Assembly: GCA_028710985.1 (NCBI GenBank)
Contig: JAQTTB010000001.1
Coordinates: forward strand, 587,014 to 651,013
Length of the DNA: 64,000 nucleotides
DNA from: Patescibacteria group bacterium
Lineage (GTDB): Bacteria > Patescibacteriota > Patescibacteriia > JAHJFT01
Reading direction: 5' to 3'
Positions 3,712 through 55,253 of the stretch are shown here, in pieces. Numbering within the stretch: position 1 is the stretch's first letter; each line of letters begins with the position of its first letter. A model generated the notes under the pieces. That model saw only the letters and a list, made by a program, of their open reading frames with translations, searched no databases and had not been told where the DNA came from. Both the position numbers and the translations under genes were made by a program.

Positions 3712-5052
3712 ATGGCAAAAAAAGAATTAAATTCAATGGAAAAAATTGTGGCATTCTGCAAGCGGCGCGGATTTATTTTTCAGTCATCCGAAATCTACGG
3801 CGGATTCGCGAGCTGTTACGATTACGGCCCGCTCGGCGTCGAGTTGAAAAATAACATCAAGCGCGCCTGGTGGAGGTCCATGGTGCAGGAGAACCCTGAC
3901 ATTGTCGGTCTTGATGCCTCGATCCTGATGTCGCCCAAAGTATGGGAAGCTTCGGGGCATATGGGTTCCGGATTCACCGACCCCATGGCGGAATGCAAAA
4001 AATGCCATAAGCGCTTCCGGCCCGACAAGATCGAAAATCCCAAGTCATGTCCGGAATGCGGTGGAGAGCTGGGGGGGGCAAAACCGTTCAATCTTCTGGT
4101 AAAAACATTCATCGGGCCAGTTGAGGATACCGCCTCGGTGGCATATCTGCGTGGAGAAACTTGTCAGGGGATTTACGTTAATTTTGAAAATGTGCGCGAA
4201 TCAATGCGGCTAAAACTGCCGTTCGGCATCGCCCAGATCGGAAAATCATTTCGCAATGAAATCACACCCGGAAATTTTATCTTCCGCATGCGCGAATTTG
4301 AGCAGATGGAAATGCAATATTTTGTGAATCCCAAAGAAAAAGCGGGGCACTTTAAACGCTGGAAAGATGCTCGGATGCAATGGTATCTTGATTATGGAAT
4401 GAATAAGAAGAACTTAAAATTTTACGAACAGAAAAAAGAAGAATTGGCCCACTATTCAAGCGCGGCTTTCGATATTGAATACGAATTTCCTTTTGGTCTC
4501 GATGAACTCGAGGGCATTCATGACCGCGGGGACTGGGATCTTTCAAATCATTCCAAACATAGCGGTAAGGACCTGCGGTATTTCAACGAAGAGACTAAGG
4601 AAAAATATTTTCCCCACGTTGTCGAGACCTCGGCCGGAGCCGATCGCGCCACCCTGGCATTTTTGATTGATGCCTATAGCGTGGTTGAGGGTGGACGTAC
4701 CACCACCACCGAAAGCGCCAAAGAAGAAGAAGTCGTATTGAGGCTTGATAAAAGGCTGTCGCCGATTAAAGTCGCCGTATTGCCGCTTTCAAAAAAAGAG
4801 GAGCTGGCCTCGCCGTGTCGAAAGATTTACGAGGAGCTTGCTCGTCACTGGATGGTTCAGTATGATGAAACCGGTTCAATCGGCCGGCGTTACCGCCGCC
4901 AGGATGAAATCGGCACCCCCTACTGTATTACCTTTGATTTTGATTCGCTCGAGGACAAGTCCGTGACGGTCCGCGACCGCGATACCATGGAGCAGGAGAG
5001 AATCAAAATAGGTGATCTCGCGGATTATCTCGCAGAAAAACTCAATGTATAA
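3712..5052 (+). CDS. glyQS: glycine--tRNA ligase (dimeric class II type)
   Basis: N-terminus FQSSEIYGGFASCYDYGPLG and class II motifs. Confidence 0.9.
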   Translation: MAKKELNSMEKIVAFCKRRGFIFQSSEIYGGFASCYDYGPLGVELKNNIKRAWWRSMVQENPDIVGLDASILMSPKVWEASGHMGSGFTDPMAECKKCHKRFRPDKIENPKSCPECGGELGGAKPFNLLVKTFIGPVEDTASVAYLRGETCQGIYVNFENVRESMRLKLPFGIAQIGKSFRNEITPGNFIFRMREFEQMEMQYFVNPKEKAGHFKRWKDARMQWYLDYGMNKKNLKFYEQKKEELAHYSSAAFDIEYEFPFGLDELEGIHDRGDWDLSNHSKHSGKDLRYFNEETKEKYFPHVVETSAGADRATLAFLIDAYSVVEGGRTTTTESAKEEEVVLRLDKRLSPIKVAVLPLSKKEELASPCRKIYEELARHWMVQYDETGSIGRRYRRQDEIGTPYCITFDFDSLEDKSVTVRDRDTMEQERIKIGDLADYLAEKLNV

Positions 5053-6319
5053 ATTATCAAAATTAAAAAACGGCATCCGGTTTCTTTCGGTGCCGGTGGC
5101 CGGTACGAGCGCGGTTACGGTTTTTGTTTTATGCCGCGTCGGTTCGCGCTACGAAACTCCGAATCTCGCCGGCGCCTCTCATTTCATCGAACATCTGATG
5201 TTCAAAGGTACGGCGCGTCGGCCGACTACGCTTGATATCTCGCGCGAGCTTGATGGCATCGGCGCCGAATACAACGCCATGACTTCAAAAGACTGGACCG
5301 GCTATTACGTTAAGGCAAGTTCGCGCCATCTGCCGCTTGCCCTGGATGTTTTGTCCGACATGCTCTGGAATTCAAAATTTGATGAACAGGAATACGCTCG
5401 CGAAAAAGGTGTTATCATTGAAGAGATCAACATGTACGAAGATAATCCTAATATGCGCCTTGATTCTCTTTTGGAAGAAGCCATGTTTCCCGGGAATACG
5501 CTCGGCCGGGACATCGCCGGAACCCGCGAGAGTATCACGCGCATGAAACGCGGCGAAGTTATCGCGTATCGCGACCGGTTCTACGCGCCGCGCAACACCG
5601 TGGTCATCGCGGCCGGCGATATTGCCGGCGCTGCGCCTCGGGTCAAAAAGATTTTTGAAAATCTTGGCGTAAAAACTAAGCTCAAACCGCTCCGTTTTAA
5701 AAATTTTTACGGATTAACAAAATCTGCGTTCTTGCGCTGCCGCATCCAGCACAAAAAAACCAAACAGATTCATCTCGCCCTGGGATTTCCGGGGCTGCCG
5801 CATGACCACCGTGATTTGTCCGCGCTCACGCTCGGGAGCGTTATCCTCGGCGGCACCATGAGCTCGCGTCTTTTTATTGCGATCCGTGAACGTGAGGGCC
5901 TGGCGTACTACGTCAATTCATCGGTTGATTGTTATGAGGACGCCGGTATTTTTTCAATCCGCGCCGGGCTGGATACGTCGCGCCTTGTCAAAGCCGCTTC
6001 CATATTGATTGCGGAAATCGAAAAATTTAAAAAATTCGGCCCCACGGCCGAAGAGGTCCGCCGCGCTAAGGACACGGTACGCGGCAAGTTTGAGCTCGCG
6101 CTTGAAGATTCGGCGAATCAGGCCGATTTCTATGGTAAGCAAGCCCTGCTCATGAAACGCATCAAGACTCCGCAGGAAAAACTTCGGGAAATTCAGCGCG
6201 TTTCTGGCGCGGATATCGTGCGGGTCGCGGCCCGGATATTTGACTGGCGCCGCGCCGGCATCGCGATAATCGGACCATACCACCGTCCCTCGGATATTAC
6301 AAAATATTTTAAAGTATAG
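5045..6319 (+). CDS. M16 family zinc peptidase (insulinase-like)
   Basis: HFIEHLMFKGT inverted zinc-binding HxxEH motif; start overlaps glyQS stop by 8 nt. Confidence 0.85.
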   Translation: MYKLSKLKNGIRFLSVPVAGTSAVTVFVLCRVGSRYETPNLAGASHFIEHLMFKGTARRPTTLDISRELDGIGAEYNAMTSKDWTGYYVKASSRHLPLALDVLSDMLWNSKFDEQEYAREKGVIIEEINMYEDNPNMRLDSLLEEAMFPGNTLGRDIAGTRESITRMKRGEVIAYRDRFYAPRNTVVIAAGDIAGAAPRVKKIFENLGVKTKLKPLRFKNFYGLTKSAFLRCRIQHKKTKQIHLALGFPGLPHDHRDLSALTLGSVILGGTMSSRLFIAIREREGLAYYVNSSVDCYEDAGIFSIRAGLDTSRLVKAASILIAEIEKFKKFGPTAEEVRRAKDTVRGKFELALEDSANQADFYGKQALLMKRIKTPQEKLREIQRVSGADIVRVAARIFDWRRAGIAIIGPYHRPSDITKYFKV

Positions 6320-6320
6320 T

Positions 6321-7091
6321 ATGAACAATAAAATAATAATAGCCAACTGGAAAACATATTTATCCGTTTTTGAATCCGAAGAAATCGTGAGAGAGGTTTT
6401 GAAATTCGTAAAAAAACAAAAAGACATGCCCGAGCTCGTTTTTTGCCCGACATTTACGGCAATTCCGTCGGTTGCGAAAATTATCGGCGGCTCTGGAAAA
6501 ATGAAACTTGGTGCGCAGAACATGAACTGGCGCGACCGCGGACCCTTTACCGGCGAAGTCTCGCCAATCACGCTTAAGGAATTCGGCTGCGAGTTTGTTA
6601 TTCTTGGTCATTCGGAACGGAGAGTACATTATCACGAGACCGATCTCGAAATCCATGAGCGCATCAAACTCGCTCTGGAATACGGTCTGATCCCGGTGGT
6701 CTGCGTCGGCGAAACTGCGGAGGAAAGGCGAGCCGGACGTCGCGACGAAGTGGTGCGTCGTCAGGTAACCGAATCGCTCGGCATCCTTGACCTCAAGGGC
6801 AGTGAGCGTATTATTATTGCGTATGAGCCGGTTTGGGCAATCGGTTCCGGCCAGGCCGTCGCCGCCGATGACGTCGAAAGTTCGCATATGTCAATCAGGC
6901 AGACCATTATTGATAATTATTCCGAATCGGAATTTAATCTGCATTTTCAAATTATTTACGGAGGCAGCGTCGATGCCGCAAATCTTGAAGGCTTTCTGGA
7001 AAAGGAAATCGTGAGCGGCGTGCTCGTCGGGTCAGCAAGTTCTCGGACAGAAAGCCTAATCAGTATCATCGATGGCTGTATAAATTATTAA
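6321..7091 (+). CDS. tpiA: triosephosphate isomerase
   Basis: IIANWK, ILGHSERR and AYEPVWAIGSG motifs. Confidence 0.9.
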   Translation: MNNKIIIANWKTYLSVFESEEIVREVLKFVKKQKDMPELVFCPTFTAIPSVAKIIGGSGKMKLGAQNMNWRDRGPFTGEVSPITLKEFGCEFVILGHSERRVHYHETDLEIHERIKLALEYGLIPVVCVGETAEERRAGRRDEVVRRQVTESLGILDLKGSERIIIAYEPVWAIGSGQAVAADDVESSHMSIRQTIIDNYSESEFNLHFQIIYGGSVDAANLEGFLEKEIVSGVLVGSASSRTESLISIIDGCINY

Positions 7092-13468: not shown

Positions 13469-13546
13469 TGAATCATGAATTAGGAATCATGAATCAGGAA
13501 TAAAGTTGCTTGGCAAGCCCCTGATTCCTGATTCATAATTCTTTAT
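13469..13546. repeat. Repeat family A: ~78-bp imperfect palindrome (gaatcatgaatcaggaat ... attcctgattcatgattc) directly upstream of lexA
   Basis: Arms gaatcatgaattaggaatcatgaatcaggaa / cctgattcctgattcataattc around a ~20-nt centre; further copies at 17449 and 33557. Confidence 0.75.
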
Positions 13547-13675
13547 TCTCTTGTTAAGACTAAAGATACTAAATTGAAATAATACGTCACTTATCCACAG
13601 CCTTGCTGGTATGCATATATTATATACCGAACAAAAACCGAACACAAGATGCTTGTCAAGCCCCGGACCATTCTA

Positions 13676-16467: not shown

Positions 16468-16489
16468 ACGGGACATCGCTGTCTCGTTC
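16466..16489 (-). terminator. rho-independent terminator for the 16488-16733 gene
   Basis: Hairpin gaacgagacagcgatgtcccgttc followed by T8 on the minus strand. Confidence 0.5.
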
Positions 16490-16733
16490 AGGCTAGCGCC
16501 GCGCTCCGGCCGTGAGTGAGGTTGATGACATTGAAGTAGCCTTCCTCGGCGGCGTACTGGATGGCCGCTCGGCGCAGGCGGATGATGGCTTTGGCCACAT
16601 CCTCGGGTCCGCATTCGTCCTCCACTAGGAGAAGCGGCTGCTGCGGCGGGTGCAGTTCGAACGGCACCTGGTCAGAAAAAAGGCTTGCCCAGATGCGGCT
16701 CTGGTGCGTGTAGATGAGGATTGAGAGCTTCAT
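16488..16733 (-). CDS. hypothetical protein (81 aa), ORFan cassette with textbook expression signals
   Basis: AAGGAGG 6 nt upstream of ATG; promoter TTGACA-17-TAAAAT at 16769-16797 (minus strand); own terminator. Confidence 0.5.
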   Translation of the reverse strand: MKLSILIYTHQSRIWASLFSDQVPFELHPPQQPLLLVEDECGPEDVAKAIIRLRRAAIQYAAEEGYFNVINLTHGRSAALA

Positions 16734-19745: not shown

Positions 19746-19762
19746 ATAATAGAATATCAGTT

Positions 19763-19820
19763 AATCGGTGAATCAGTGGATCGGGACGAAAAACCCGATT
19801 CACCGATTCACCGATTCACC
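19763..19820 (+). promoter_or_regulatory. Repeat C: inverted plus tandem (gattcaccg x3) hairpin immediately upstream of cysS
   Basis: cggtgaatcagtggatcggg acgaaaaa cccgattcaccgattcaccgattcaccg; ~20-bp imperfect stem ending 5 nt before the cysS ATG. Confidence 0.6.
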
Positions 19821-33286: not shown

Positions 33287-33559
33287 ATGGCAAGACCCCG
33301 CCTCAAACGGAGGGTTCAATTTACGCCCAAAGCTACCTCGTTCAAGCCCGACGTTCCTGGCGAGGGTTTTTTTGATTATATTGAACTCACGCTTGAGGAA
33401 GCCGAAGCCATTCGTCTCAAAAACGTTGAAGGTCTGGACCAGATTCCGGCGGCCCGCGCCATGAGGACATCGCAAGCCACTTTTCACCGAATCTTAAAAT
33501 CCGCCTATCGCAAAATTGGGGACGCCATTGTCCATGGCCGCGTCATTAAAATACGTTGA
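33287..33559 (+). CDS. DUF134/UPF0251 family predicted DNA-binding protein
   Basis: MARPRLKRRVQFTPKATSFKP...LTLEEAEAIRLKNVEGLDQIPAARAMRTSQATFHRILKSAYRKIGDAIV matches DUF134. Confidence 0.7.
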   Translation: MARPRLKRRVQFTPKATSFKPDVPGEGFFDYIELTLEEAEAIRLKNVEGLDQIPAARAMRTSQATFHRILKSAYRKIGDAIVHGRVIKIR

Positions 33560-33636
33560 ATCATGAATCAGGAATCATGAATCAGGAATCGCAGCATAGA
33601 AAGACCCTGATTCCTAATTCCTGATTCCTGATTCCT
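33557..33636. repeat. Repeat family A copy (tandem gaatcatgaatcaggaatc x2 ... cctgattcct x3)
   Basis: Palindromic arrangement around a 15-nt centre. Confidence 0.75.
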
Positions 33637-33703
33637 CATGCTAAGCAACGCTGCGCATTCGGTATTCTAAACAGTCTCAAAATAGAGTATAATATACTCA
33701 AAT

Positions 33704-38606: not shown

Positions 38607-38700
38607 ATATTTAATTTTGAATTTAAAATTTTGAATTTCGAATTTAGGTTTTTTGATTTTGAAATTAAGAATTCGAAATTCAAAATTCTAAAATGCCTCT
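38607..38700. repeat. Repeat family B: AT-rich degenerate tandem (gaattcgaaatt / aaattcaaaattc units)
   Basis: Similar arrays at 53110-53215 and 54322-54392. Confidence 0.6.
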
Positions 38701-41682: not shown

Positions 41683-43314
41683 ATGCGTGAAAAACTGAAA
41701 AATTTCTTTAATGGCAAATCAACCAGCATAATTTCCGCGGCCGTGATTGTCGCGGCTGCTTCTTTCGCAAGCCGGCTCCTCGGCGTGGTGCGCGACCGCA
41801 TTCTCGCCGGCCAGTTCGGCGCCGGCGACGAACTTGATATTTATTACGCTGCGTTCCGCCTGCCCGATCTTGTCTACAGCCTGCTTGTCGCCGGCGCGCT
41901 TTCGGCCGGATTTATTCCCATCTTCGCCGAACTCATTAGCGGCGACAAATCGCAGAAAGCGGCTTGGCGCGTGGCGAACGGTGTCTTGAATATCGTTTTT
42001 TTGGGCACGGCCGCGCTTTGCGCCATTCTTGCTCTGCTCGCGCCTTATATCATTCCGTTTGTCACGCCCGGATTTTCCGGCGAAAAGCTTGAATTCACTA
42101 TTCAACTCTCGCGCATCATGTTTCTCTCGCCGTTATTTTTGGGCCTTGGTGCCGTGTTCGGCGGCATCCTGCAGACGCATAAGCGCTTCATCCTGTATTC
42201 AGTCGCGCCCATATTCTATAATCTGGGCATCATCTTCGGCGCGTTATTTTTAGTGGACCGCTTCGGCTTGGCCGGGCTCGCTTACGGCGTGGCAATTGGC
42301 GCATTTTTGCATTTTGCGGTGCAGATTCCCGGCGCGTACGCGCTCGGCTGGCGCTACTCGCCGGCTCTGCCCCTTGGCGATAAGCATGTCCGGAAAATCG
42401 GCAAAATGATGGTGCCGCGCGTTTTGAGCCTCGCGGTCAACAATATTAATATCATCGTCATCACGGCCATTGCTTCAACCCTTGCGGCCGGCAGCGTGGC
42501 GGTTTTTAATCTCGCGAACAATCTTCAGTATTTTCCGGTCGGCATTATCGGTTTCTCGTTTGCTATTGCCGCGTTTCCGACCATCTCCGAATTCGCGGCA
42601 TCCGAATCCTGGGAAAAATTCAGAAAAGCATTTTCCAATACCGTGCGCGATATTCTTTTTTTCATGATCCCGGCTTCAATCGTCTTCCTTCTGCTCCGCG
42701 CCCAGATCGTGCGCGTCATTCTGGGTTATGGCGAGTTTTCTTGGGAGGATACCATTCTCACCGCCGACGCGCTCGCGTTTTTTGCTTTAAGCCTTTTTGC
42801 GCAGGCAATCGTCCCGCTTTTGGTGCGCATGTTTTTCGCGGTAAAAAATACGGCCACGCCGTTCATTGCCGCCATACTTTCGGCCGCGCTCAATATCGCG
42901 CTCGCGCTCTGGCTCATTGAGCCGCTTGGCGTGGTCGGCCTTGCTCTCGCGTTCACCGCCGCGAGCATCTTTAACGCCGTTTTTCTCTGGGTGGCTTTGC
43001 GTTTCCGGGTCGGATACCTTTTCGAATTTACAATTATCCAGTCTTTGTATAAGATAACCGTTGCGGCGCTTGCCATGGGCCTGGTCATCCAGGTTTCCAA
43101 ATATCTAGTTGAGCCGTTTGTGAACATGCAGACATTCATCGGTATTCTGACGCAGGGCGCGGTCGCCGGCGGGCTCGGGCTTCTGGTCTATTGCCTCGTC
43201 TGCCTGATCCTCCGCAGTCCGGAAATGCTGAATTTTAAAGCCTCTCTGCAGAGAAAATTATTTAAAAAATATTACAAACCCCAGGAGAGCCTGGAAGGAG
43301 CAGATAAACTGTGA
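41683..43314 (+). CDS. murJ: lipid II flippase MurJ
   Basis: MviN/MurJ N-terminus and 14-TM topology. Confidence 0.85.
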   Translation: MREKLKNFFNGKSTSIISAAVIVAAASFASRLLGVVRDRILAGQFGAGDELDIYYAAFRLPDLVYSLLVAGALSAGFIPIFAELISGDKSQKAAWRVANGVLNIVFLGTAALCAILALLAPYIIPFVTPGFSGEKLEFTIQLSRIMFLSPLFLGLGAVFGGILQTHKRFILYSVAPIFYNLGIIFGALFLVDRFGLAGLAYGVAIGAFLHFAVQIPGAYALGWRYSPALPLGDKHVRKIGKMMVPRVLSLAVNNINIIVITAIASTLAAGSVAVFNLANNLQYFPVGIIGFSFAIAAFPTISEFAASESWEKFRKAFSNTVRDILFFMIPASIVFLLLRAQIVRVILGYGEFSWEDTILTADALAFFALSLFAQAIVPLLVRMFFAVKNTATPFIAAILSAALNIALALWLIEPLGVVGLALAFTAASIFNAVFLWVALRFRVGYLFEFTIIQSLYKITVAALAMGLVIQVSKYLVEPFVNMQTFIGILTQGAVAGGLGLLVYCLVCLILRSPEMLNFKASLQRKLFKKYYKPQESLEGADKL

Positions 43315-43401: not shown

Positions 43402-45171
43402 ATGAACAATCTCCGCAACTTTTGCATCATTGCCCATATCGACCACGGTAAGTCCACGCTGGCTGACCGTTTTTTAGAATTAACAGGCACGGTTGATAAA
43501 AGAAAAATGAAAGAGCAGATTCTGGACAGCATGGATCTTGAGCGCGAAAAGGGGATCACCATCAAACTCCAGCCCGTGCGCATGGAATACGAGGGATATA
43601 TTTTAAATCTGATTGACACTCCCGGGCATGTTGATTTTAATTACGAAGTTTCGCGGTCATTGGCCGCGGTTGAGGGCGCGATTCTCTTGGTTGACGCGAC
43701 CCAGGGCGTGCAGGCGCAGACACTCGGCAATCTGTATATGGCCCTGGAGCAGAATCTCGCCATCATTCCGGTATTGAATAAAATTGATCTGCAAAATGCC
43801 GATGTCGAACGCTGCCGCGAGGAGCTCGTGAAACTCATCGGCTGTAAGCGCGAAGAGATTTTTGAAGTTTCGGCCAAGACCGGCAAAAATGTTGAACAAG
43901 TACTCCGGGCTGTGATTCGCGAAGTTCCGCCCCCGTTCGGCGAGGCGTCCGCTCCCCTCCAAGCTTTAATTTTCGATTCCGACTACGATGAATATAAAGG
44001 CGTTGTCGCCGACGTGCGTTTGAAAAACGGGGAGCTGTATCCCGGTGACCGCATCCGGCTCGTCGGCACCGCCGCGCCGACCGAAGCGCTTGAAGTCGGA
44101 TATTTCCGGCCCCAGCTTGTGAAATCCGCCAAACTCGCGGCCGGCGACATCGGTTACATCGTCACGAGCCTTCGGACGATCAAGGATTGCCGCGTCGGCG
44201 ATACCATCACCCTGGAAAGCAATCCGGCGGCGCTTCTGCCCGGATACAAAGAGGTCAGGCCCATGGTTTATGCCGGCATTTTTCCGCGCGACGGCGCCGA
44301 GTACGCCCGCCTGCGCGAGGCCATGGACAAGTTAAAATTAAATGACGCGGCCCTCGCTTTTGAACCCGAACGCTCGCAGGCGCTCGGCTTCGGCTTCCGT
44401 TGCGGGCTCCTCGGCATGCTTCATCTTGAAATCGTGCAAGAGCGGCTCCGGCGCGAATACAATCTGGATCTCGTGGTCACCATTCCGTCGGTGGCTTACA
44501 AAATATTTGACACCAAGGGAGAAGAGATTACCATCAAGTCCGCGCAGGAGATGCCCGACCCGTCGCGCGTTGAGCATATCGAAGAGCCGTGGGTGAGCGT
44601 GGACATCGTTACCCCCAAAGAGTTTGTCGGCAATATCATGTCGCTCGTCTCCGAACGCCGCGGCATTTACAAAAACACCGAATATCTGGATCCGAGCCGC
44701 ACGATTATGCATTATGACATTCCGCTCGCCGCCGTGATTGTTGATTTTTACGATAAACTTAAGAGCGCGTCATCCGGATACGCTTCGTTAAATTACGAAT
44801 TCATCGGCTATCGCCAGGCCAAGATAATCAAGCTCACGATCCTGGTGGCCGAAGAAACGGTTGAAGCCCTGTCCATGCTTGTGCCCGAAGATGAAGCCTA
44901 CCGCGAAGGCAAGCGCATCGTCACCCTGCTCAAAGAAAGCCTGCCGCGCCAGCAGTTTGTCATCAAAATTCAGGCCGCGATCGGCGGCAAGATTATCGCC
45001 GCCGAGCGGCTTTCCGCCTTCCGCAAGGATGTCATCGCCAAACTCTACGGCGGGGACGTCACGCGCAAAAACAAACTTCTGGAAAAACAGAAAAAGGGAA
45101 AGAAAAAAATGATGTCCCGCGGCCACGTGGAAATCCCGACTGAAACATTTTTGAAAGTACTTAAAAGATAA
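43402..45171 (+). CDS. lepA: elongation factor 4
   Basis: NFCIIAHIDHGKSTLADR G-domain and LepA C-terminal domain. Confidence 0.92.
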   Translation: MNNLRNFCIIAHIDHGKSTLADRFLELTGTVDKRKMKEQILDSMDLEREKGITIKLQPVRMEYEGYILNLIDTPGHVDFNYEVSRSLAAVEGAILLVDATQGVQAQTLGNLYMALEQNLAIIPVLNKIDLQNADVERCREELVKLIGCKREEIFEVSAKTGKNVEQVLRAVIREVPPPFGEASAPLQALIFDSDYDEYKGVVADVRLKNGELYPGDRIRLVGTAAPTEALEVGYFRPQLVKSAKLAAGDIGYIVTSLRTIKDCRVGDTITLESNPAALLPGYKEVRPMVYAGIFPRDGAEYARLREAMDKLKLNDAALAFEPERSQALGFGFRCGLLGMLHLEIVQERLRREYNLDLVVTIPSVAYKIFDTKGEEITIKSAQEMPDPSRVEHIEEPWVSVDIVTPKEFVGNIMSLVSERRGIYKNTEYLDPSRTIMHYDIPLAAVIVDFYDKLKSASSGYASLNYEFIGYRQAKIIKLTILVAEETVEALSMLVPEDEAYREGKRIVTLLKESLPRQQFVIKIQAAIGGKIIAAERLSAFRKDVIAKLYGGDVTRKNKLLEKQKKGKKKMMSRGHVEIPTETFLKVLKR

Positions 45172-45183
45172 ATTTTTTTAATT

Positions 45184-45873
45184 ATGCCATTAAATATAAG
45201 CTATAGTGCAGAATTTGAAAAACGAAGAATAAAAAACACGATTAAAAAATTGTCTTGGTATAAAAAATTAGGGTACTCGCCCTGTTTCCCGAAAAATATT
45301 AATCCCCAAAATGATAATTTAAAAAAAATATACGCCGCTTTTAAAAATGAATACGACGAGGCAGATTATAAAAGAGCCGCTAGGGAGATTAACGAAAAAT
45401 TTTCTAAAATTGAAAGTACTTTTTACGATAAGCTAGAGAAAATATGCGGTAAAAAAATCAAAAGAAATTTTAAATTGATACTTACTAAATATGGCGTTGG
45501 CGGTTCTTATTCATCGCCAAATACAATAATATTCAACATTAAATGGAAGTTTTCAAACTCGGTTAATATAGTTTTGCATGAAATTACGCACCTAGTAATT
45601 GAACCGCACATAAAAAAATATCAAGTTCAACATAATGAAAAAGAACGGATAGTCGATTTGATTTTGACATCAAAGCCCATTGGATTGAAAAATTATAAAA
45701 TGCAACAAAGAGGAGAAGAATATAAGAAATTTTTTGACCCGCTATTTAAAAAATATTTTAAACCGCCCATAGGCAGTTTTTTTAAAAAATTAGCACGACT
45801 ACACAGAAATCCTTCCCTGCCCCTCCCTCCTGCCTGCCGACAGGCAGGTTATAAAGGGAGGGGACCGGAATAG
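45184..45873 (+). CDS. AT-rich hypothetical protein with HEITH (HExxH) motif; 3' end runs into GC-rich hairpins
   Basis: ~30% GC ORF against a ~52% background; LHEITHLV; the C-terminal ~20 codons coincide with palindromes cctgcctgccgacaggcagg and cccctcctt...aaggagggg. Confidence 0.45.
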   Translation: MPLNISYSAEFEKRRIKNTIKKLSWYKKLGYSPCFPKNINPQNDNLKKIYAAFKNEYDEADYKRAAREINEKFSKIESTFYDKLEKICGKKIKRNFKLILTKYGVGGSYSSPNTIIFNIKWKFSNSVNIVLHEITHLVIEPHIKKYQVQHNEKERIVDLILTSKPIGLKNYKMQQRGEEYKKFFDPLFKKYFKPPIGSFFKKLARLHRNPSLPLPPACRQAGYKGRGPE

Positions 45874-45953
45874 CACGGCCGCAGTATCTTGTTCCCCTCC
45901 TTAATAAAGGAGGGGAAAGGGGAGGATTTTACAAGTGGATTTTAGAACAGCGC

Positions 45954-46317
45954 ATGAAATATTATCCGACCTACAATTCAAAATTAAAACCAACGGCACG
46001 CGTTTTGCGGAACAGTATGACTCCCGCGGAAATACTTCTCTGGTCAGGGTTGAAAGCCAAGCAATTCTGCGGATTGCAATTTTACCGGCAGCGTCCGCTC
46101 GGCAATTATATTGTTGATTTTTATTGCCCCGCCAAAAAGCTCGTGATTGAAGTTGATGGCGGGCATCATTGTTATGATGACAAGCAGGTCGCGAACGACA
46201 AAAAGAGACGCTTATCTTAAAAAAGTTTTTAAATTAAAAATATTGCGATTTAATAATGTTGATATCTTGAATAGCATTGACGAAGTGCTCGAGAGAATTG
46301 CGGAACAAATATATTGA
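45954..46317 (+). pseudogene. DUF559 (Vsr-like endonuclease domain) gene with a frameshift in an A-run
   Basis: Frame 1 (45954-46220) gives LLWSGLKAKQFCGLQFYRQRPLGNYIVDFYCPAKKLVIEVDGGHH...DKKRRLS*; the conserved C-terminus LKKVFKLKILRFNNVDILNSIDEVLERI continues in the +1 frame to 46317; the shift falls in ttaaaaaag near 46215. Confidence 0.6.
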
Positions 46318-46340
46318 TATATTTAGCAAAATAATATAAT
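46313..46340 (+). promoter_or_regulatory. promoter-like element (TTGATA-15-TATAAT) for the 46407 gene
   Basis: ttgata tatttagcaaaataa tataat; the spacer is a bit short. Confidence 0.35.
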
Positions 46341-46406
46341 GTAACTTTACATCGCAGACGATTTATACTTCACGGTTATCTAGCCGTGAGAAAAAAGGAG
46401 GAGGCC

Positions 46407-46859
46407 ATGGAGCAGGATCAGCGCGATAAGTATTTGGCTGCGGTTGACCGGTTCAAGCCGCACCTAGTTGACTGGAGCAGGCGCATCCGTGTACTCGCGG
46501 CCGACGAGGAGGCGCGCGGCAAGGCCGAATACGAGCGCGTTATGAGCGAGGGAGAAACCCGGCCCGGTGATGGAATCATAGCCGAGGTTTGGCCCTATGC
46601 CAGACTCAAAACTAATCACGAGTTCATGGTGCGCGAAAGCGAGCTCAGTATCTTCGGCAAGGAGGACAGCTGGCGCCGGCCGTGGAGCGACGTCGAGGAA
46701 GACGGGCGCAATGCGTTCTTCAAGCTCTTTCTCGGGCATGTGCCCATGTGCCACTTCCGTGGGTCAAGCGATGCCGCCATGCCTGACTTCCGCGTCCTGC
46801 TCATCGGCCTCCTGGAGGATGATGCCAAATTCATCCAAGTGCTGGAGGGGAGGAGCTAG
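46407..46859 (+). CDS. hypothetical protein (150 aa), ORFan cassette 1 of the lepA-recJ island
   Basis: AGGAGG 6 nt upstream of ATG; ~60% GC; own terminator at 46888-46922. Confidence 0.5.
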   Translation: MEQDQRDKYLAAVDRFKPHLVDWSRRIRVLAADEEARGKAEYERVMSEGETRPGDGIIAEVWPYARLKTNHEFMVRESELSIFGKEDSWRRPWSDVEEDGRNAFFKLFLGHVPMCHFRGSSDAAMPDFRVLLIGLLEDDAKFIQVLEGRS

Positions 46860-46887
46860 CCTCACGCGGCTCAAGACATCCTAACTC

Positions 46888-46922
46888 GACCCATTTGCCA
46901 AGAGCAAGTGGGTCTTTTTTTT
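46888..46922 (+). terminator. rho-independent terminator
   Basis: gacccatttgccaagagcaagtgggtc + T9. Confidence 0.65.
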
Positions 46923-46938
46923 ATGAAAAGGCGAGCGG

Positions 46939-46967
46939 TTGACAAAATATCACATTTATGATATTAT
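46939..46967 (+). promoter_or_regulatory. textbook sigma70 promoter (TTGACA-17-TATTAT)
   Basis: ttgaca aaatatcacatttatga tattat. Confidence 0.55.
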
Positions 46968-46990
46968 AGTCAGTTTTAAAGGAGGATAAG

Positions 46991-47362
46991 ATGAGCCGCA
47001 AGCACAAAGAGGCGATAGCTCACCTGAAGGCGATCGGGGTGATACGAGGATACGACATCAAGTCAAAGCTCCCCGAGCTAGAGAGGACGTCCACCTTCCT
47101 GCGGTTCCCACCGCCTCCGGATTTTCTAAGAGTGGACCCTTCTACCGATCGGGCGGTGATGGACGAGGTTCTGCTGCGAGAACGCGCCTCACTTCATGCC
47201 ATGTGGGCAAGGGAGTTTGATCAGGGGATGGCGATGGAAGACCGTCGTATCGCCATGTGTGAGTACGAAGAAGGGCCGAGAGAGGCCCTCATGAAGCCGC
47301 CCTGGTACAAGCGCCTGCTGGTTCGTCTCGGAATGGCCAAGTCTCCGCGAATCGAGCCCTAG
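46991..47362 (+). CDS. hypothetical protein (123 aa), ORFan cassette 2
   Basis: AAAGGAGG RBS; own promoter and terminator. Confidence 0.5.
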   Translation: MSRKHKEAIAHLKAIGVIRGYDIKSKLPELERTSTFLRFPPPPDFLRVDPSTDRAVMDEVLLRERASLHAMWAREFDQGMAMEDRRIAMCEYEEGPREALMKPPWYKRLLVRLGMAKSPRIEP

Positions 47363-47417
47363 CGAAGCAAAAGCTACTCTCCGATCATATTGAATACATC
47401 ATCGATGCCTGCTCAAG

Positions 47418-47450
47418 CGCCATCGCACCTCTGCGACGGCGTCTTTTTTT
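47418..47450 (+). terminator. rho-independent terminator
   Basis: cgccatcgcacctctgcgacggcg + tcTTTTTTT. Confidence 0.6.
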
Positions 47451-47494
47451 CTGCATAATTTTGTGCTAAGCTCATAAATAGAGGAGGAGATACG

Positions 47495-47770
47495 ATGAAT
47501 TATTCCAGCCTGGACGAAGCTTATCTTGCCTTGGAGAGAATGCGTAAAGAGCGAGAAACTGCGCTTACGAAAGAGGAGAAGGATAAGCTGGACATGGATA
47601 TCGCATACCTTCGGCACGAGATTAGAAGTGCTTCCTCGGAGGAAGTCCTATACGCGCGTTGGGGCGATAGCGACTTCGACGAGCCTGACGACTCCGACGG
47701 GTTCTGCGACCCTGACGGACCCTATGACTTCGACGAGTTCGCGGGAGACGGCGACGGAGGCTGTCTCTAG
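47495..47770 (+). CDS. hypothetical acidic protein (91 aa): N-terminal helical region, Asp/Glu/Gly-rich C-terminal tail; ORFan cassette 3
   Basis: GAGGAGG RBS; tail DSDFDEPDDSDGFCDPDGPYDFDEFAGDGDGG. Confidence 0.5.
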   Translation: MNYSSLDEAYLALERMRKERETALTKEEKDKLDMDIAYLRHEIRSASSEEVLYARWGDSDFDEPDDSDGFCDPDGPYDFDEFAGDGDGGCL

Positions 47771-47824
47771 GAAGAAATTCCTGAACTTGAAGAGGGCTAT
47801 GGAGAAGTGAGCCAGCGCCTGTCT

Positions 47825-47853
47825 TTGACAATTTCCGCAAAATGATGTAGCTT
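47825..47853 (+). promoter_or_regulatory. sigma70-like promoter (TTGACA-17-TAGCTT) driving a non-coding region
   Basis: ttgaca atttccgcaaaatgatg tagctt. Confidence 0.45.
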
Positions 47854-47859
47854 TTAAAT

Positions 47860-48155
47860 ATTCAAGGAGAGCCTCGAGAGGGACCCGCACACCTCTGGAT
47901 GCCGAGACTTTCCAGAGCTGCCAAAAGAGGGCACGCAGAGAGGAGCTCTGGCCAGCGAACCTTTCCTTCCGGAGAACCCATCAGTATCGGGCGCTGCGTT
48001 TCCTGTATGCGGTTTCCGGTATGCGTGGGAGTGGAGGAAATGGCCACCAATAATCTCTGCACCTTATTTTGTTCCTTTCTTGATGTTATCCGTCGCCCTT
48101 GCGATGGAACCGTTTCGTCATGTCCTGCCTTGCCTTCAAGTCGGGACTTTTTTTA
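47860..48155 (+). ncRNA. candidate structured non-coding RNA (~300 nt, GC-rich, promoter to T-run)
   Basis: No RBS-preceded ORF; the only ORF (47899-48162) is Cys-rich, low-complexity and lacks an SD; the region ends in a T7 run at 48148-48154; no known RNA family recognised. Confidence 0.3.
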
Positions 48156-48230
48156 TCTATAATTTTTTATGGCGTTGTTACGGCGAACTCATTGCCCTAT
48201 ATCCCGTCGTATAGTAAAATATAACTGCTT

Positions 48231-48338
48231 ATGAGACCAAGGCATATAAAATTAATAAAAAGACTAGTGATTCTGGTATTTTTTTTGTTTATAATTTTGA
48301 GTACCATCCTTTGGACAATGGCCCCACTGTTTTACTAA
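48231..48338 (+). CDS. possible 35-aa hydrophobic peptide (MRPRHIKLIKRLVILVFFLFIILSTILWTMAPLFY)
   Basis: Short ORF with one TM-like segment in the AT-rich spacer; no RBS; very tentative. Confidence 0.2.
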   Translation: MRPRHIKLIKRLVILVFFLFIILSTILWTMAPLFY

Positions 48339-48343
48339 TATGA

Positions 48344-48408
48344 GAGCGTTGAATATTTATGAAACGCCCTCATCCCGAGTTCCGATCGCAATCGGGACGA
48401 GGGATCTA
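48344..48408 (+). promoter_or_regulatory. Motif D copy upstream of recJ
   Basis: agcgttgaatatttatgaaacgc then cctcatcccgag ttccgatcgcaatcgggac gagggatct, followed by tattatact. Confidence 0.55.
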
Positions 48409-48476
48409 TTATACTCGCGGCAAGAAACATCGATTATAAAAGAGATGAATATTTTTAGTTATCCAACGGTCTAAAT

Positions 48477-50201
48477 ATGCGCAAGGCTTGGAAAATCGCC
48501 GAGGCCGTGAGCCCGGATTATTGCGCCCGGTTTCCGGAAATCTCACCGGTCGTGGTTCAGCTTCTGGCGAACCGTGGCCTTGAGAGCCAGGAGCAGATTG
48601 ACGAATTTTTGGCGCCGGATTTTACGCGGGATATTAAAGATCCTTTTTTATTTACGCGCATGCGCGACGCGGTTGAGCGCGTTTTTCAGGCGATTGAGGC
48701 GCGGGAAAAAATTACGGTCTGGAGCGATTACGACGCCGACGGCGTCACGAGCGGCACAATTGCGCGCTCGGTTATCCGCGAGGTCGGAGCAAAGTTGGGC
48801 TATGACGGCGAGCTGGTTGACTTTTACATTCCGCACCGCGACCTGGAAGGCTACGGCCTCAATCAGGCCGGGGTTGAAAGAATCGCCAAAGAGGGGTGCA
48901 AACTTCTGGTTGCCACGGATTGCGGCATCGGCAATGCCAATGAAATCGCCTGGCTCCGGAAAAAAGGAATCGATGTCATCGTAATCGACCACCACCAGGT
49001 GCCCGACCGCCTGCCGGACGCGATTATTATTCATACTTCAACGCCCGGTGAGATTTATCCGTTCAAGCCCTTTGCCGCGGCCGGCGTGGCGTTCAAATTT
49101 GCCTGCGCCCTGATTACCGCAGGGCGGGAGCGGGGGATTGATTTTTCTCCGGGTTTTGAAAAATGGTACCTGGATCTCGTGGCCATCGCCACGGTGACGG
49201 ACATGATGCCCCTCATCGGAGAGAACCGCACCCTGGAAAAGTTCGGGCTCGTGGTGCTCGCAAAAACGCGGCGGCCGGGCCTGCGCAAACTGTTTGAAGC
49301 CGCCGGCATCGCGTCCGAGAAGCTGGACACGCGTTCCATCGGATTTCAGATCGGGCCGCGCCTTAACGCCGCAAGCCGCATGGACCACGCCAATCAGGCA
49401 TTCGCGCTCCTCAATGCCGAAGACGAAAAACAAGCCGCCGAACTCGCGACAGAGCTTTGCTCATTGAATCAGCAGCGCCGGGACATCACCAAAGAAACAT
49501 ACGATCAGGCAATCGCGCAAATCGGCGATCCGGGCAACCGGAAAATTCTTTTCAGCCGGAATGAATCCTGGCCGCCGTCAATCGTCGGGCTGGTGGCCGG
49601 CAAAGTCTGCGATGATTACTATCGCCCGGTGATTCTCATCGGCCGCGAAGGGGAGAGGTGGCTTGGTTCGGGCCGGAGCATTCCCGAGTTTGACATTACT
49701 GCCGCCCTGCACTCGGCCGAAGAGCATCTGGCGCGCTTTGGCGGCCATCCCGGGGCCTGCGGCTTTGACATGAAGTCCGAGGCCGATATCGCGCCGTTTA
49801 TTGAAAAACTCACCAAATACGCCGAAGAGCGATTAGCCTGCGTCGCGCTCGCGCCGGCCATAAATATTGAGGCCGAATTGGGGCTCGATGAAACAAATTT
49901 TGATCTGGTGCACGCGCTCGCTGAATTCGCGCCGCACGGCATGAATAATCCCAAGCCCATATTTTTGGCGCGCGATCTCACGGTCGTGAGTTTTGAAACC
50001 ATGGGCATGGACCAAAAGCATCTGAAAATCGCGGTAAAGACTCCGGCCGGCGCCACAAAAAAATTAGTCGGTTTCGGCATCGCCGGCCGCATCTCCGAAC
50101 TCAAAGTCGGCGCCAAGCTTGAACTCGCTTACGAACTTGATATCAACCAGTGGAATGGGAATCAGGAGCTGCAATTTAAAATTATTGATTTTAAATTATG
50201 A
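48477..50201 (+). CDS. recJ: single-stranded-DNA-specific exonuclease RecJ
   Basis: DHH motifs (DYDADGV, ATDCGIGN, VIDHH) and DHHA1 domain. Confidence 0.9.
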   Translation: MRKAWKIAEAVSPDYCARFPEISPVVVQLLANRGLESQEQIDEFLAPDFTRDIKDPFLFTRMRDAVERVFQAIEAREKITVWSDYDADGVTSGTIARSVIREVGAKLGYDGELVDFYIPHRDLEGYGLNQAGVERIAKEGCKLLVATDCGIGNANEIAWLRKKGIDVIVIDHHQVPDRLPDAIIIHTSTPGEIYPFKPFAAAGVAFKFACALITAGRERGIDFSPGFEKWYLDLVAIATVTDMMPLIGENRTLEKFGLVVLAKTRRPGLRKLFEAAGIASEKLDTRSIGFQIGPRLNAASRMDHANQAFALLNAEDEKQAAELATELCSLNQQRRDITKETYDQAIAQIGDPGNRKILFSRNESWPPSIVGLVAGKVCDDYYRPVILIGREGERWLGSGRSIPEFDITAALHSAEEHLARFGGHPGACGFDMKSEADIAPFIEKLTKYAEERLACVALAPAINIEAELGLDETNFDLVHALAEFAPHGMNNPKPIFLARDLTVVSFETMGMDQKHLKIAVKTPAGATKKLVGFGIAGRISELKVGAKLELAYELDINQWNGNQELQFKIIDFKL

Positions 50202-53112: not shown

Positions 53113-53215
53113 TCCCGAATTCTGAATTTCGAATTTTGATTCAATTATGAAATTAAGAATTATTAATTGATTCGAAATTCAGAATTCAAAATTCGAACAT
53201 ATTTAGACACATATT
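53110..53215. repeat. Repeat family B array
   Basis: gaattctgaatttcgaattttg ... gattcgaaattcagaattcaaaattcgaa. Confidence 0.6.
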
Positions 53216-53242: not shown

Positions 53243-54322
53243 ATGCCTTTATTTGGTAAACCGACAAAAAAGAGTTACCTCGGCGTCGACCTCGGTGCCG
53301 GCGGAATTAAAGTTGTGGAACTTATGAACGAGCGGGGACGCGCCCGGCTAGTGACTTATGGTTACAGCGACCGCCCGTTTGAGGTTATGTCGACCAATAT
53401 TATCGATACGGCCAAAGACGCCGCCGAAACTCTGAAAAAAATTTGCCAAAAAGCCCAGACCTCGTCCACAAAGGCCGTGGCCGGTTTGCCGGTTGCTTCA
53501 GTTTTTAGCTCAATTATTACGGTCCAGGCAAAAAATCGCGACGAGCTCAAAGAGGCGATTCAGGCTAAGGCAAAAAAGCTGATCCCCATGCCAATTGAAG
53601 AAATGATTATTGATTCCAAGATTTTAAACAAGCTGCCCGAGGGCAACAAAGAGTTCCCGGCCGAGTCGCGCAATATCCGCGTTTTGATCACCGGCGCGCC
53701 CAAGGGCATTGTAAAAAAATACATTGAAATATTTAAAATCGCGGGTTTGGAACTCTTGAGTCTCGAGACCGAGGCGTTTGCCCTGATTCGTTCGCTCGTG
53801 GGCAAGGACCCGTCGTCAATCATGATTATTGATTTCGGTTCGGTGCGTACAAACTTAAGCGTGATTGAAAAGGGTATACCCTTTCTGAACCGCAGCATAA
53901 ACATGGGCGGGCTGACGATCACTAAAACCATCAGTCAGAGTCTGGGCCTGGGCCTCAAGGAATCCGACCAGATGAAGCACGACATCGCTTCGCTCTCGCG
54001 CGTCGCGCCGGGCGGCAGTCTGCCCAAGCTTTTGGACAATCTGCTCCAGCCGATCGTGAATGAAATCAAATATTCGCTCAATATGTATGCCGCGCAAAAA
54101 GAAAGCGAGGGGACCACGGTGCAAAAAATAATTCTCACCGGCGGTTCATCGCTCTTGCCCAATCTTTCGGATTATTTTACCAAACTTTTGAATATCAACA
54201 CCTATCTCGGCGATCCGTGGGCGCGCGTTATTTATCCCACCGAGCTGAAGCCGGTTCTTGATGATATCGGTCCGCGCTTTTCCGTGCCGGTCGGACTCGC
54301 CATGAGAGACATCGGAATCTAA
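53243..54322 (+). CDS. pilM: type IV pilus assembly protein PilM (actin-like ATPase)
   Basis: LGVDLGAGGIKVVEL and actin-fold layout. Confidence 0.85.
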   Translation: MPLFGKPTKKSYLGVDLGAGGIKVVELMNERGRARLVTYGYSDRPFEVMSTNIIDTAKDAAETLKKICQKAQTSSTKAVAGLPVASVFSSIITVQAKNRDELKEAIQAKAKKLIPMPIEEMIIDSKILNKLPEGNKEFPAESRNIRVLITGAPKGIVKKYIEIFKIAGLELLSLETEAFALIRSLVGKDPSSIMIIDFGSVRTNLSVIEKGIPFLNRSINMGGLTITKTISQSLGLGLKESDQMKHDIASLSRVAPGGSLPKLLDNLLQPIVNEIKYSLNMYAAQKESEGTTVQKIILTGGSSLLPNLSDYFTKLLNINTYLGDPWARVIYPTELKPVLDDIGPRFSVPVGLAMRDIGI

Positions 54323-54392
54323 TTTCGAATTTCGAATTCTGGATTTCGAATTTCAAAATTCAAAATTGATTCAGAATTCAAAATTCGAAATT
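54322..54392. repeat. Repeat family B array
   Basis: taatttcgaatttcgaattctggatttcgaatttcaaaattcaaaattgattcagaattcaaaattcgaaatt. Confidence 0.6.
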
Positions 54393-55253
54393 ATGACTAA
54401 CGGAGGAATTAGCCTGCTGCCTGAGGACATGAAAAAACTGGAGCAGGAGGAACTTGGAGAAAAGCCAAGCAAAGAGCCGGAAAAGGCTCCGAGTTTTCAT
54501 ATTCCCGGCACTGAACCACAAATGTCTCAATCCGAAGATCTTGGTCCGTTGCCCGCGCCCCGGCCACCGGTTTCCCAATTTACGTCCGAAGCAAAGAGAG
54601 AAGCCCCGGTTGCGCCCTATAAACAACGACTGTCGCGTCCCGGTGAGCCGTCTAAACCGCCGCCGCCACCGATTCCACAGCGCCGTTCGCTTCAGGTTAG
54701 TTTGATTCCCGAGGAAGTGAAGGAAAAGAAACAGAATATCAAATTCCGTAAAATTGCGCTCGGTGCTGTCTTGGGTATTGAAGTCGCGTGCTTGATCGTA
54801 TTCATGCTCGTGGCCGACGGTTTTGTTGAGGCAAAGCGCCAGCAGATTGAAAAAATTGATGCCGATATTGCCAATACCAAGGCGCAGATTGGAACAATGC
54901 GCGACGAGAATGCGGAAATTTTTATGGCCGAGAAAAAGCTTAATGCCGTAAATTATTTGCTCGGCCGGCACGCCGTGCCTTCAAAGATATTTGAATTCTT
55001 GGAGAAGAATACTCTTTCCGCGGTCTGGTATGAGAGTTATATTTCTACCGGAAAGGGTGAGCTATCGCTTTCGGCAGCGGCGGATAATTTGGAAACCGCA
55101 GCAAAACAAATTGCGCATTTAGAGGCAATGCCCGAAGTTAAGGAAATTCGGGTCAATAATTTTGAAAACAGGACGGATTTGTTAGGTCGGGAAACCGGTG
55201 TCAGCTTTGAAATGCAGATTGTGTTCGTTGACGGATTTTTAAACGCCAATTGA
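54393..55253 (+). CDS. pilN: PilN-like pilus assembly protein (TM plus periplasmic coiled coil)
   Basis: Position after pilM; single TM (IALGAVLGIEVACLIVFMLV). Confidence 0.55.
   Translation: MTNGGISLLPEDMKKLEQEELGEKPSKEPEKAPSFHIPGTEPQMSQSEDLGPLPAPRPPVSQFTSEAKREAPVAPYKQRLSRPGEPSKPPPPPIPQRRSLQVSLIPEEVKEKKQNIKFRKIALGAVLGIEVACLIVFMLVADGFVEAKRQQIEKIDADIANTKAQIGTMRDENAEIFMAEKKLNAVNYLLGRHAVPSKIFEFLEKNTLSAVWYESYISTGKGELSLSAAADNLETAAKQIAHLEAMPEVKEIRVNNFENRTDLLGRETGVSFEMQIVFVDGFLNAN

Follow-up and report, generated by a model that had tools for sequence, protein, structure and literature searches.

The lepA-recJ interval and its features

The window studied here is a stretch of 64,000 nucleotides from a Patescibacteria metagenome-assembled genome (locus tags PHW53_03090 onwards), which our interpretation treats as a Parcubacteria-type genome, and the element in question is the interval of 3305 bp that separates two of its conserved genes, lepA and recJ. 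We read this interval as a variable region that sits at a hot spot of repeated insertion and is a composite of layers of different age, not one machine (probability about 0.7). All genes of the region are on the plus strand. The features are listed below, where ORF stands for open reading frame, aa for amino acids and SD for Shine-Dalgarno sequence.

41683-43314, plus strand: murJ, upstream of lepA
43402-45171, plus strand: lepA (EF4; NCBI name translation elongation factor 4), the conserved left flank
45184-45873, plus strand: HExxH gene, AT-rich, 229 aa, encoding a zincin-like putative metallopeptidase
45806-45930, no strand: GC-rich nested palindromic element with CCCTCC/GGGAGG hairpins, the 5' neighbour of DUF559
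45954-46317, plus strand: DUF559 (Vsr-like PD-(D/E)XK nuclease) pseudogene in two frames, from Pfam
46407-46859, plus strand: ORF150, with an SD at 46395-46404 and a terminator at 46888-46922
46991-47362, plus strand: ORF123, with a promoter at 46939-46967, an SD at 46979-46986 and a terminator at 47417-47451
47495-47770, plus strand: ORF91, with an SD at 47481-47490 and without a terminator of its own
47771-48230, plus strand: stretch without coding signal, whose non-coding part (47771-48153) ends in a hairpin and seven T at 48122-48153
48231-48338, plus strand: 35-aa ORF, a predicted transmembrane micropeptide gene, which with recJ forms the right flank of the hot spot
48477-50201, plus strand: recJ, the conserved right flank (Pfam DHH, DHHA1 and RecJ_OB)

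Downstream of recJ lie rnhA and then a gene of the 23S-IVP family. The GC content of the window is 0.51, and at third codon positions (GC3) that of the native genes is about 0.6.

The lepA-recJ gap in related genomes

A LepA scan of metagenome contigs yielded 80 loci (L010 to L089) with 60-77% identity, whose gene order was determined by tblastn; over all related loci, which number 80 or more, the lepA of the window is 60-78% identical to theirs. The usual order is murJ-lepA-recJ-rnhA, in which murJ precedes lepA in most related loci with upstream sequence available, and recJ follows lepA in 61. Across the 61 loci carrying both genes, the median gap is 195 bp; the shortest measures 102 bp, 25 exceed 300 bp and the longest reaches 3981 bp. 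The cargo of the long gaps is unrelated among loci and to that of the window; according to translations read by eye, with no family scans, it includes CBS-domain-like proteins, a Nudix-like protein, membrane proteins and large probable enzymes. Insertions have recurred in this gap, which is a hot spot for them, and the 3305 bp of the window are one filling of it. An earlier reading of the window, made from its letters only and called here the sequence-only reading, had taken the interval for accessory DNA between conserved syntenic genes and had proposed comparing it across related genomes. The 61 loci support that view, since their content varies and is not an identical core. A recJ scan of GTDB genomes added one distant relative (34% identity), whose upstream sequence was too short.

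Chromosomal integration hot spots are variable regions between conserved core genes. The gap described here resembles them in its conserved syntenic flanks (murJ-lepA on one side and micropeptide-recJ-rnhA on the other), in being usually minimal, and in having cargo that differs by lineage. It differs from them in that no integrase, tRNA or direct repeats flank the insert of the window, and in that the insert consists of a few small genes and no large island, part of it inherited vertically within the sub-clade. No integrase ORF was found within 42-51.5 kb of the window.

In L010, one of the closest relatives, the murJ-lepA junction is expanded too (3880-6271) and encodes a 633-aa coiled-coil protein and, on the opposite strand, a 115-aa protein. 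A second variable site therefore adjoins lepA, as seen in this locus.

A micropeptide gene upstream of recJ

In 33 of the 36 short-gap loci, an ORF for a peptide of 29-36 aa ends 5-80 nt before recJ (for example L074 11798-11896, L079 9673-9771 and L063 4655-4759). The peptide has the consensus MKRKKxxKxxWxxISxxVxxSMVxWTxGxxF, and its shorter motif MKRKK..W..S....SM..WT was counted 38 times on the plus strand versus 5 times on the minus strand. The 35-aa ORF of the window occupies the same position as in the relatives, scores 18.9 bits against a hidden Markov model built without the window peptide, and has a spacer to recJ of 138 nt, compared with the 5-80 nt of the relatives. Because the short gap encodes the micropeptide, we place the insertion point between the lepA stop and the micropeptide gene.

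The possible 35-aa hydrophobic peptide of the sequence-only reading is conserved in relatives, and its gene is, as predicted from its sequence, a conserved single-pass membrane micropeptide gene. The comparison thus brings to light a gene that is uncalled in this genome, which has no protein record for it and in which the NCBI accessions of ORF91 and RecJ are consecutive, and that figures as a hypothetical protein in some Parcubacteria records (e.g. OQA39108.1). The 35-aa ORF has no significant match in Pfam, PHROGs, PADLOC or NCBIfam.

Several relatives without the micropeptide ORF encode, directly 5' of recJ, a recurrent multi-pass membrane protein of 123-145 aa (…HHHYQ…VIFLF…); it is found at L012 11884-12255, L013 2908-3339, L065 5863-6300, L017 12184-12576, L014 4394-4786 and L075 3508-3891.

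An older layer shared with sister lineages

By lepA identity, the closest relatives of the window are L090 and L095 (78%) and L010 (77%). In L090 and L095, lepA is followed by GC-rich palindromes, an intact DUF559 gene, an 86-aa gene, an ORF150-like gene, an 80-83-aa gene and a Ser_hydrolase gene, with an extra 170-aa gene in L095 between the 86-aa and the ORF150-like genes; in L010 the order is lepA, an ORF150-like gene and a hydrolase gene. The palindromes, DUF559 and ORF150 are older than the genome of the window, because they are common to sister lineages and the palindromic element aligns across three genomes. The 86-aa gene that follows DUF559 (L090 2327-2587, L095 1635-1895; 80% identical between both) has a sequence reminiscent of a winged-helix DNA-binding domain. 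The window has lost this gene and keeps only 89 nt between DUF559 and ORF150.

The palindromic element of the window folds with -75.6 kcal/mol (z -8.8) and has no second copy within the window. One of its hairpins, hairpin B, aligns nucleotide by nucleotide with the element 5' of DUF559 in L090 (~1883-1925) and L095 (~1192-1235), and relative to both, the window carries an additional 20-nt inner palindrome and a 56-nt hairpin. The palindromes are duplicated in L095, and related CCCTCC/GGAGGG hairpins occur at other Patescibacteria loci. Palindromic repeats that extend or insert into coding regions include the Rickettsia palindromic elements and repeats of the repetitive extragenic palindromic (REP) or miniature inverted-repeat transposable element (MITE) kind. 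The element described here is like these in its GC-rich nested hairpins, its repetition in L095 and an in-frame occurrence in the lepA of L050, and like the Rickettsia elements it supplies coding sequence, namely the last ~18 codons of the HExxH gene. Unlike these repeats, it was seen in only a handful of copies.

The L050 palindrome (~5110-5170, …CCCCCTGCCTGCCGGCAGGCAGGC…) lies in-frame within lepA (4520-6397), lengthens it, and resembles the inner palindrome of the window element. A hairpin at L048 19314-19348 resembles positions 45892-45917 of the window, and another GC-rich hairpin of the window (CCCTCATCCCGA…TCGGGACGAGGG, 48366-48405) is located between the micropeptide gene and recJ, where it widens the spacer to its 138 nt.

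The DUF559 profile of Pfam (PF04480) matches positions 45954-46220 with an E-value of 5.5e-22 and 78 bits (cut-off 20.6), and the C-terminal part of the domain continues in the +1 frame at 46147-46317 (E 9e-4). The break, which the sequence-only reading had correctly placed in a run of A, consists of one extra A in the A5 run at 46200-46204. The frameshift is not an assembly error, because the frameshifted sequence is identical in three independent assemblies. At the same position, L090 and L095 have intact orthologues of 103-125 aa that are 63-69% identical to the window pseudogene. Codon usage was scored as log-odds, with 32 native genes of the window as the training set; native genes score 0.223 ± 0.052, and the first frame of DUF559 scores 0.077. 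The gene of the window, having no intact frame, is probably inactive. It shares with the Vsr/DUF559 endonucleases a clear profile match and has intact orthologues in sister genomes; it departs from them in its frameshift, and no cytosine methyltransferase partner is visible beside it in the window.

Vsr and a homing endonuclease of a group I intron both belong to the VSR/DUF559/DUF2726 group of PD-(D/E)XK nucleases (PMC3424549), and the block could be the remnant of a selfish element led by DUF559. A Vsr- or homing-type endonuclease and its target-like palindromes would then have colonised the 3' flank of lepA in the sub-clade and carried along small, fast-evolving cargo genes; in the window, the nuclease would have decayed and the cargo turned over. 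The palindromes and DUF559 stand directly after lepA in three genomes, the small genes beside DUF559 differ between genomes, and the duplication in L095 and the hairpins elsewhere, including the one in the L050 lepA, would be in keeping with mobility of this kind. We nevertheless consider such an origin unlikely. In L010, the ORF150-like gene directly follows lepA and DUF559 is missing, the block is bounded by no intron, intein, integrase or terminal repeats, and DUF559 was absent from all 80 lepA loci L010 to L089; the only loci found to have it are L090, the near-duplicate contig L091, and L095. Proteins of the DUF559 family can also be chromosomal nucleases of the mismatch-repair type (PMC12907096).

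The third member of the shared layer, ORF150, has a native-like codon score (0.220). Its start is given by NCBI as GTG 46386 (157 aa); we favour ATG 46407 (150 aa), which has an SD at 46395-46404 ahead of it and agrees with where the homologues begin. Its terminator has -18.4 kcal/mol and T8. The family is very small: an exhaustive HMMER search with the ORF150 profile found 7 cluster representatives among 1.84 billion proteins (E ≤ 5e-11), and one homologue came out of a word-indexed search through 5.8 billion proteins. The family core, W-x-x-x-W...(R/K)NAFFxLF...PD(F/Y)R...LED(D/E), is present in ORF150, and W89, W93, F104, L107 and F108 are invariant. Nothing was found for ORF150 in Pfam, PHROGs, PADLOC, NCBIfam, the PDB (by sequence and profile), phages and plasmids (by tblastn) or IMG/VR (by pattern scan), and an AlphaFold2 model from 2 sequences was unusable, with a predicted local distance difference test (pLDDT) of 43.

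Downstream of the orthologues that lie 3' of lepA in L010, L090 and L095 come genes different from ORF123 and ORF91. More distant homologues, also without ORF123 and ORF91, are found beside purC/E (L093) and after nusB-rnc-tRNA-Arg (L094). The L094 gene (7897-8369), right after tRNA-Arg, has an in-frame TAG at a conserved Trp (VDW/VSW), which may be due to recoding, to a nonsense mutation or to an error.

The HExxH gene as a horizontal arrival

The HExxH gene starts 12 nt after the lepA stop. Its GC content is 0.32 and its GC3 0.27-0.30, versus 0.51 for the window and about 0.6 for native GC3, and its codon score is -0.060. Its 54 homologues are about 205-210 aa long and carry no Pfam domain, and every one that has a source name comes from Patescibacteria. 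Their contexts vary: some are beside polA, others beside a nucleotidyltransferase gene with an integrase two genes upstream, or beside Gmad2 and DUF218 genes. The GC3, the codon usage and the varying contexts in other genomes argue that the gene is a recent horizontal arrival, and it is the only clearly foreign gene of the interval.

The sequence-only reading of a gene of about 30% GC that ends in GC-rich palindromes was confirmed, the last ~18-20 codons of the gene being supplied by the nested palindrome at 45806-45930. The homologues end at ~208 aa, soon after ...FFKKLxxxxx, and the window copy runs ~18 residues further into the palindrome; therefore, its own stop was lost at the insertion junction. 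The tail encoded by the palindrome is predicted to be disordered.

In 25 family sequences, H132, E133, H136 and E154 are invariant, with HEITH as the motif, and E154 would be the third zinc ligand. The AlphaFold2 model built from these 25 sequences (pLDDT 90.4) predicts a compact zincin fold with H-E-x-x-H…E, and the protein is a putative cytoplasmic zinc peptidase. We liken it to the gluzincins, that is, the catalytic domains of M1 aminopeptidases and LTA4H, and thermolysin. It differs from them in having only ~208 aa and no accessory domains, in its 8-15% sequence identity to the matches, in its lack of a significant Pfam, NCBIfam or PDB sequence match, and in belonging to a family seen only in Patescibacteria. 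No Pfam family reached its cut-off (the best, DUF4932, gave 14.8 bits versus 28.7). Searches of NCBIfam, PADLOC and PHROGs gave nothing, and the PDB gave no match by sequence or profile. Its model had no structural relatives in a viral fold library.

ORF123 and ORF91

ORF150, ORF123 and ORF91 are coding in their annotated frames, with z of 4.0-6.5 against shuffles and the correct frame beating the others. Because of these coding scores and of their SD, promoters and terminators, we take all three for real genes. The codon score of ORF123 is 0.080 (z 4.0; best alternative frame -0.088), its promoter TTGACA-17-TATTAT agrees with the consensus at 11/12 positions, and its terminator has -16.8 kcal/mol and T7. 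A word-indexed search of 5.8 billion proteins returned no homologue of ORF123, and nothing was found in phages, plasmids, IMG/VR, PDB, Pfam, PHROGs, PADLOC or NCBIfam.

ORF91 is a singleton cluster with a native-like codon score (0.195). Its N-terminal half is helical, and its tail is acidic and Gly-rich, with D or E at 14 of the last 38 residues and DFDE occurring twice as a direct repeat. Its sole lead is PHROG 18528, of unknown function, over the helical residues 16-57 (E 7e-4). The PADLOC scan gave only PD-Lambda-1 (E 0.048, 10.5 bits), and there was no phage, plasmid, IMG/VR, PDB, Pfam or NCBIfam match. On its sequence, we rejected the protein as a DNA mimic of the Ocr/ArdA kind: it matches no Pfam, PHROG anti-restriction or PDB entry, and its acidity is confined to the Gly-rich tail.

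In the ORF150-bearing loci, no genes like ORF123 or ORF91 were found by blastp, tblastn or hhalign. An hhalign comparison of both with the sister small-gene families gave nothing significant, its best result being a 22-residue winged-helix-like stretch (E 0.045). ORF123 and, as far as the smaller searches go, ORF91 are lineage-restricted orphan genes. Most likely, ORF150, ORF123 and ORF91 encode small soluble proteins that act independently and have binding or regulatory roles.

The sequence-only reading had described the three as genes of about 60% GC whose products it could match to no family, each with its own promoter candidate, AGGAGG ribosome-binding site and strong terminator. The lack of a known family holds in the Pfam, PHROGs, PADLOC, NCBIfam and PDB scans. 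The composition fits ORF150 (0.60) and ORF123 (0.59), but not ORF91 (0.55). An SD precedes all three genes and terminators follow ORF150 and ORF123, but not ORF91, and the consensus scan called a promoter for ORF123 and for no other of the three.

Expression style of the small genes

The native genes of the window mostly lack strong SD sequences, as had been noticed before: about 3 of ~58 other genes have one (Fisher p 0.005 for clustering in the interval). These are a 322-aa gene at 13745, an 81-aa orphan at 16488-16733 on the minus strand and a sigma-70-family gene at 24956. The 5' regions of native genes are A/T-rich and often show a TATAAT-like box that lies 8-14 nt ahead of the ATG (e.g. 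at 1021, 21252, 33704, 39651 and 53243), which suggests that most genes have leaderless or short-leader mRNAs. The 81-aa orphan has TTGACA-17-TGnTAAAAT, AAGGAGG and a hairpin with T8, which is the cassette design of the small genes, and the same style is found on the 322-aa gene and on small genes of L090, L095 and L093. The few genes of the genome that combine TTGACA promoters, a strong AGGAGG and terminators of their own are mostly small orphans, and the sigma-70-family gene is among them. The design is not specific to the interval, because this unrelated orphan uses it too; it looks like the lineage's normal way of expressing a minority class of small, lineage-restricted genes.

A phage moron is a single gene that has been inserted between other genes together with its own promoter and terminator. 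ORF150 and ORF123 are similar in being self-contained: each carries a promoter of the sigma-70 type, a strong SD and an intrinsic terminator. They differ in having neither a prophage context nor viral relatives, and their design is shared with other chromosomal orphans and with relatives.

The sequence-only reading went further and proposed that ORF150, ORF123, ORF91 and the non-coding RNA are one horizontally acquired functional module, serving as a defence, anti-defence or toxin-antitoxin-like set. We regard this as very improbable, although three adjacent SD-led monocistronic genes stand at a variable site in a genome that rarely uses SD, and ORF91 has its acidic tail and its weak PHROG match (E 7e-4). 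Horizontal acquisition fits the HExxH gene, but ORF150 and ORF91 have host-typical codon usage and ORF150 is inherited. Co-occurrence of the three genes was seen in no relative: other genes follow the ORF150 homologues, including those at unrelated loci. Genes at unrelated loci without co-occurrence were what the sequence-only reading had itself named as a refutation. None of the proteins matches a family known from defence, anti-defence or toxin-antitoxin systems, the scans of PADLOC, PHROGs, Pfam, NCBIfam and PDB gave no significant match, and searches of phages, plasmids and IMG/VR returned no relative. The separate promoter and terminator of ORF150 and ORF123 are unlike those of toxin-antitoxin operons, and the same cassette design is carried by unrelated orphans elsewhere.

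Three known systems were rejected individually. A toxin-antitoxin module does not fit the separate transcription signals of ORF150 and ORF123, the lack of a family match and the lack of co-occurrence. For known anti-phage defence (PADLOC-DB), the HExxH protein, ORF150 and ORF123 have no match, and ORF91 has only the one at E 0.048. Integron cassettes were discarded since the hairpins after ORF150 and ORF123 have 10-11 bp stems followed by T7-T8, as in intrinsic terminators, and there is no integrase.

The non-coding stretch

After ORF91, there is no terminator until the hairpin with T7 at 48122-48153 (-12.1 kcal/mol), which forms the 3' end of the non-coding stretch. The stretch has no coding signal: ORF87 within it has a codon score of -0.132, the open frame at 47858-48214 is at the non-coding level, and a scan of ORF87 against Pfam, PHROGs, PADLOC and NCBIfam gave nothing significant. 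The sequence-only reading had seen here a TTGACA-17-TAGCTT promoter followed by structured non-coding RNA that ends in a T-run. The motif is present (47826-47854), as are the fold and the T7, but the promoter falls below the threshold of our scan. Positions 47855-48160 fold into a rod-like structure of -110.9 kcal/mol, with z of -3.3 on the plus strand versus +1.0 on the minus strand. An SD-like AAGGAGAG at 47864-47871 has no start codon behind it.

These features are compatible with three origins: the stretch may be the 3' untranslated region (UTR) of ORF91, it may be a small RNA in its own right, or it may be a fourth cassette that has decayed. In the second case, 47855-48153 would encode a structured small RNA that is transcribed independently from a promoter of its own, such as a regulatory RNA or a divergent relative of 6S RNA, and the orphan genes would be unrelated to it. 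Its perfect -35 box TTGACA and -10-like box TAGCTT resemble the TTGACA-17-TAAGCT upstream of the gene at 13745, and the plus-strand fold, the terminator hairpin with T7 and the absence of a coding signal are all as expected of such an RNA. We still hold it to be rather unlikely. No terminator separates ORF91 from the stretch, which may therefore be a plain 3' UTR, and the SD-like sequence without a start codon fits a decayed cassette equally well. The Rfam scan suggested by the sequence-only reading found no family: at gathering thresholds, the window gave tRNAs only, and at E ≤ 10, the region 45100-48540 gave only chance-level microRNA and small Cajal body-specific RNA (scaRNA) matches. Neither DNA nor translated similarity to the stretch was found in the related loci L003 to L089; the neighbour proteins of L090 and L095 do not match it either.

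Among specific candidates, transfer-messenger RNA was ruled out by ARAGORN and Rfam, and RNase P was rejected on its conserved sequence blocks, examined by eye. Descent of the stretch from a decayed Ser_hydrolase, 86-aa or 80-aa gene was also rejected, since tblastn and tblastx found nothing.

How the composite region may have formed

Under our preferred reading of a composite region, the oldest layer is that of the GC-rich palindromes, the DUF559 nuclease gene and the ORF150-family gene, as in the nearest sister lineages. In this lineage, the extra A broke the frame of DUF559, and the HExxH...E zincin gene, which probably came from a low-GC donor, was inserted just behind the lepA stop and deprived of its own stop, so that it now ends in the older palindrome with a tail predicted to be disordered. 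ORF123 and ORF91 occupy the place of the 86-aa and 80-83-aa genes of the sisters, which are followed there by the serine hydrolase gene. Each small gene would be expressed as its own leadered, SD-dependent mRNA, and transcription of ORF91 probably continues over ~380 nt of structured, untranslated sequence as far as the hairpin and T7 at 48122-48153.

Several points weigh against this account. The contigs of L010, L090 and L095 end before recJ or miss it, so that a lepA-recJ gap shared by them would be an extrapolation for the DUF559-ORF150 block, and lepA may have a different right neighbour in these nearest relatives. The codon score of ORF123 is intermediate, below the native values, and may point to a foreign origin of this gene. 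The orphan status of ORF91 comes from the smaller searches, not from the large protein collections. The three adjacent SD-led genes are a non-random cluster and could have a shared origin or regulation.

A more speculative extension, which we find quite improbable, is that the sub-clade keeps an array of self-contained, SD-led, fast-evolving micro-genes together with DUF559 and the palindromes, and that their turnover comes from an undescribed conflict function. In the sister genomes this array would hold the 86-aa winged-helix-like gene, ORF150 and an 80-aa gene, and in the window ORF150, ORF123, ORF91 and a structured RNA. The conflict might be a host-symbiont or phage interaction in which the DFDE motifs of ORF91 would serve as protein- or DNA-mimic bait.

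The direct importance of the locus is low, since no new system can be demonstrated and it is an ordinary, though well-resolved, variable region. Its value lies in the map of a hot spot bounded by lepA and by the micropeptide gene and recJ across a large clade of Patescibacteria, which helps to tell core from accessory DNA in reduced genomes. It also defines two uncharacterised families, the compact HExxH...E zincins found across Patescibacteria and the very small ORF150 family. Along with the hot-spot map and the zincin family, the micropeptide gene is the finding of most use beyond this locus. The apparent two-class expression, with most genes lacking an SD and small orphans carrying a promoter, an SD and a terminator, bears on how translation starts in Patescibacteria.

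Other repeats in the window

The window also contains another class of repeats, which are intergenic hairpins made of tandem 7-8-nt units (GAATCAT/GAATCAG and GAATTTC/GAATTCT) and are unlike the palindrome of the lepA-recJ interval. They are located at the following positions.

13477-13548: tandem-unit hairpin
19756-19819: tandem-unit hairpin
33558-33639: tandem-unit hairpin
38613-38692: tandem-unit hairpin
53117-53187: tandem-unit hairpin
54320-54393: tandem-unit hairpin

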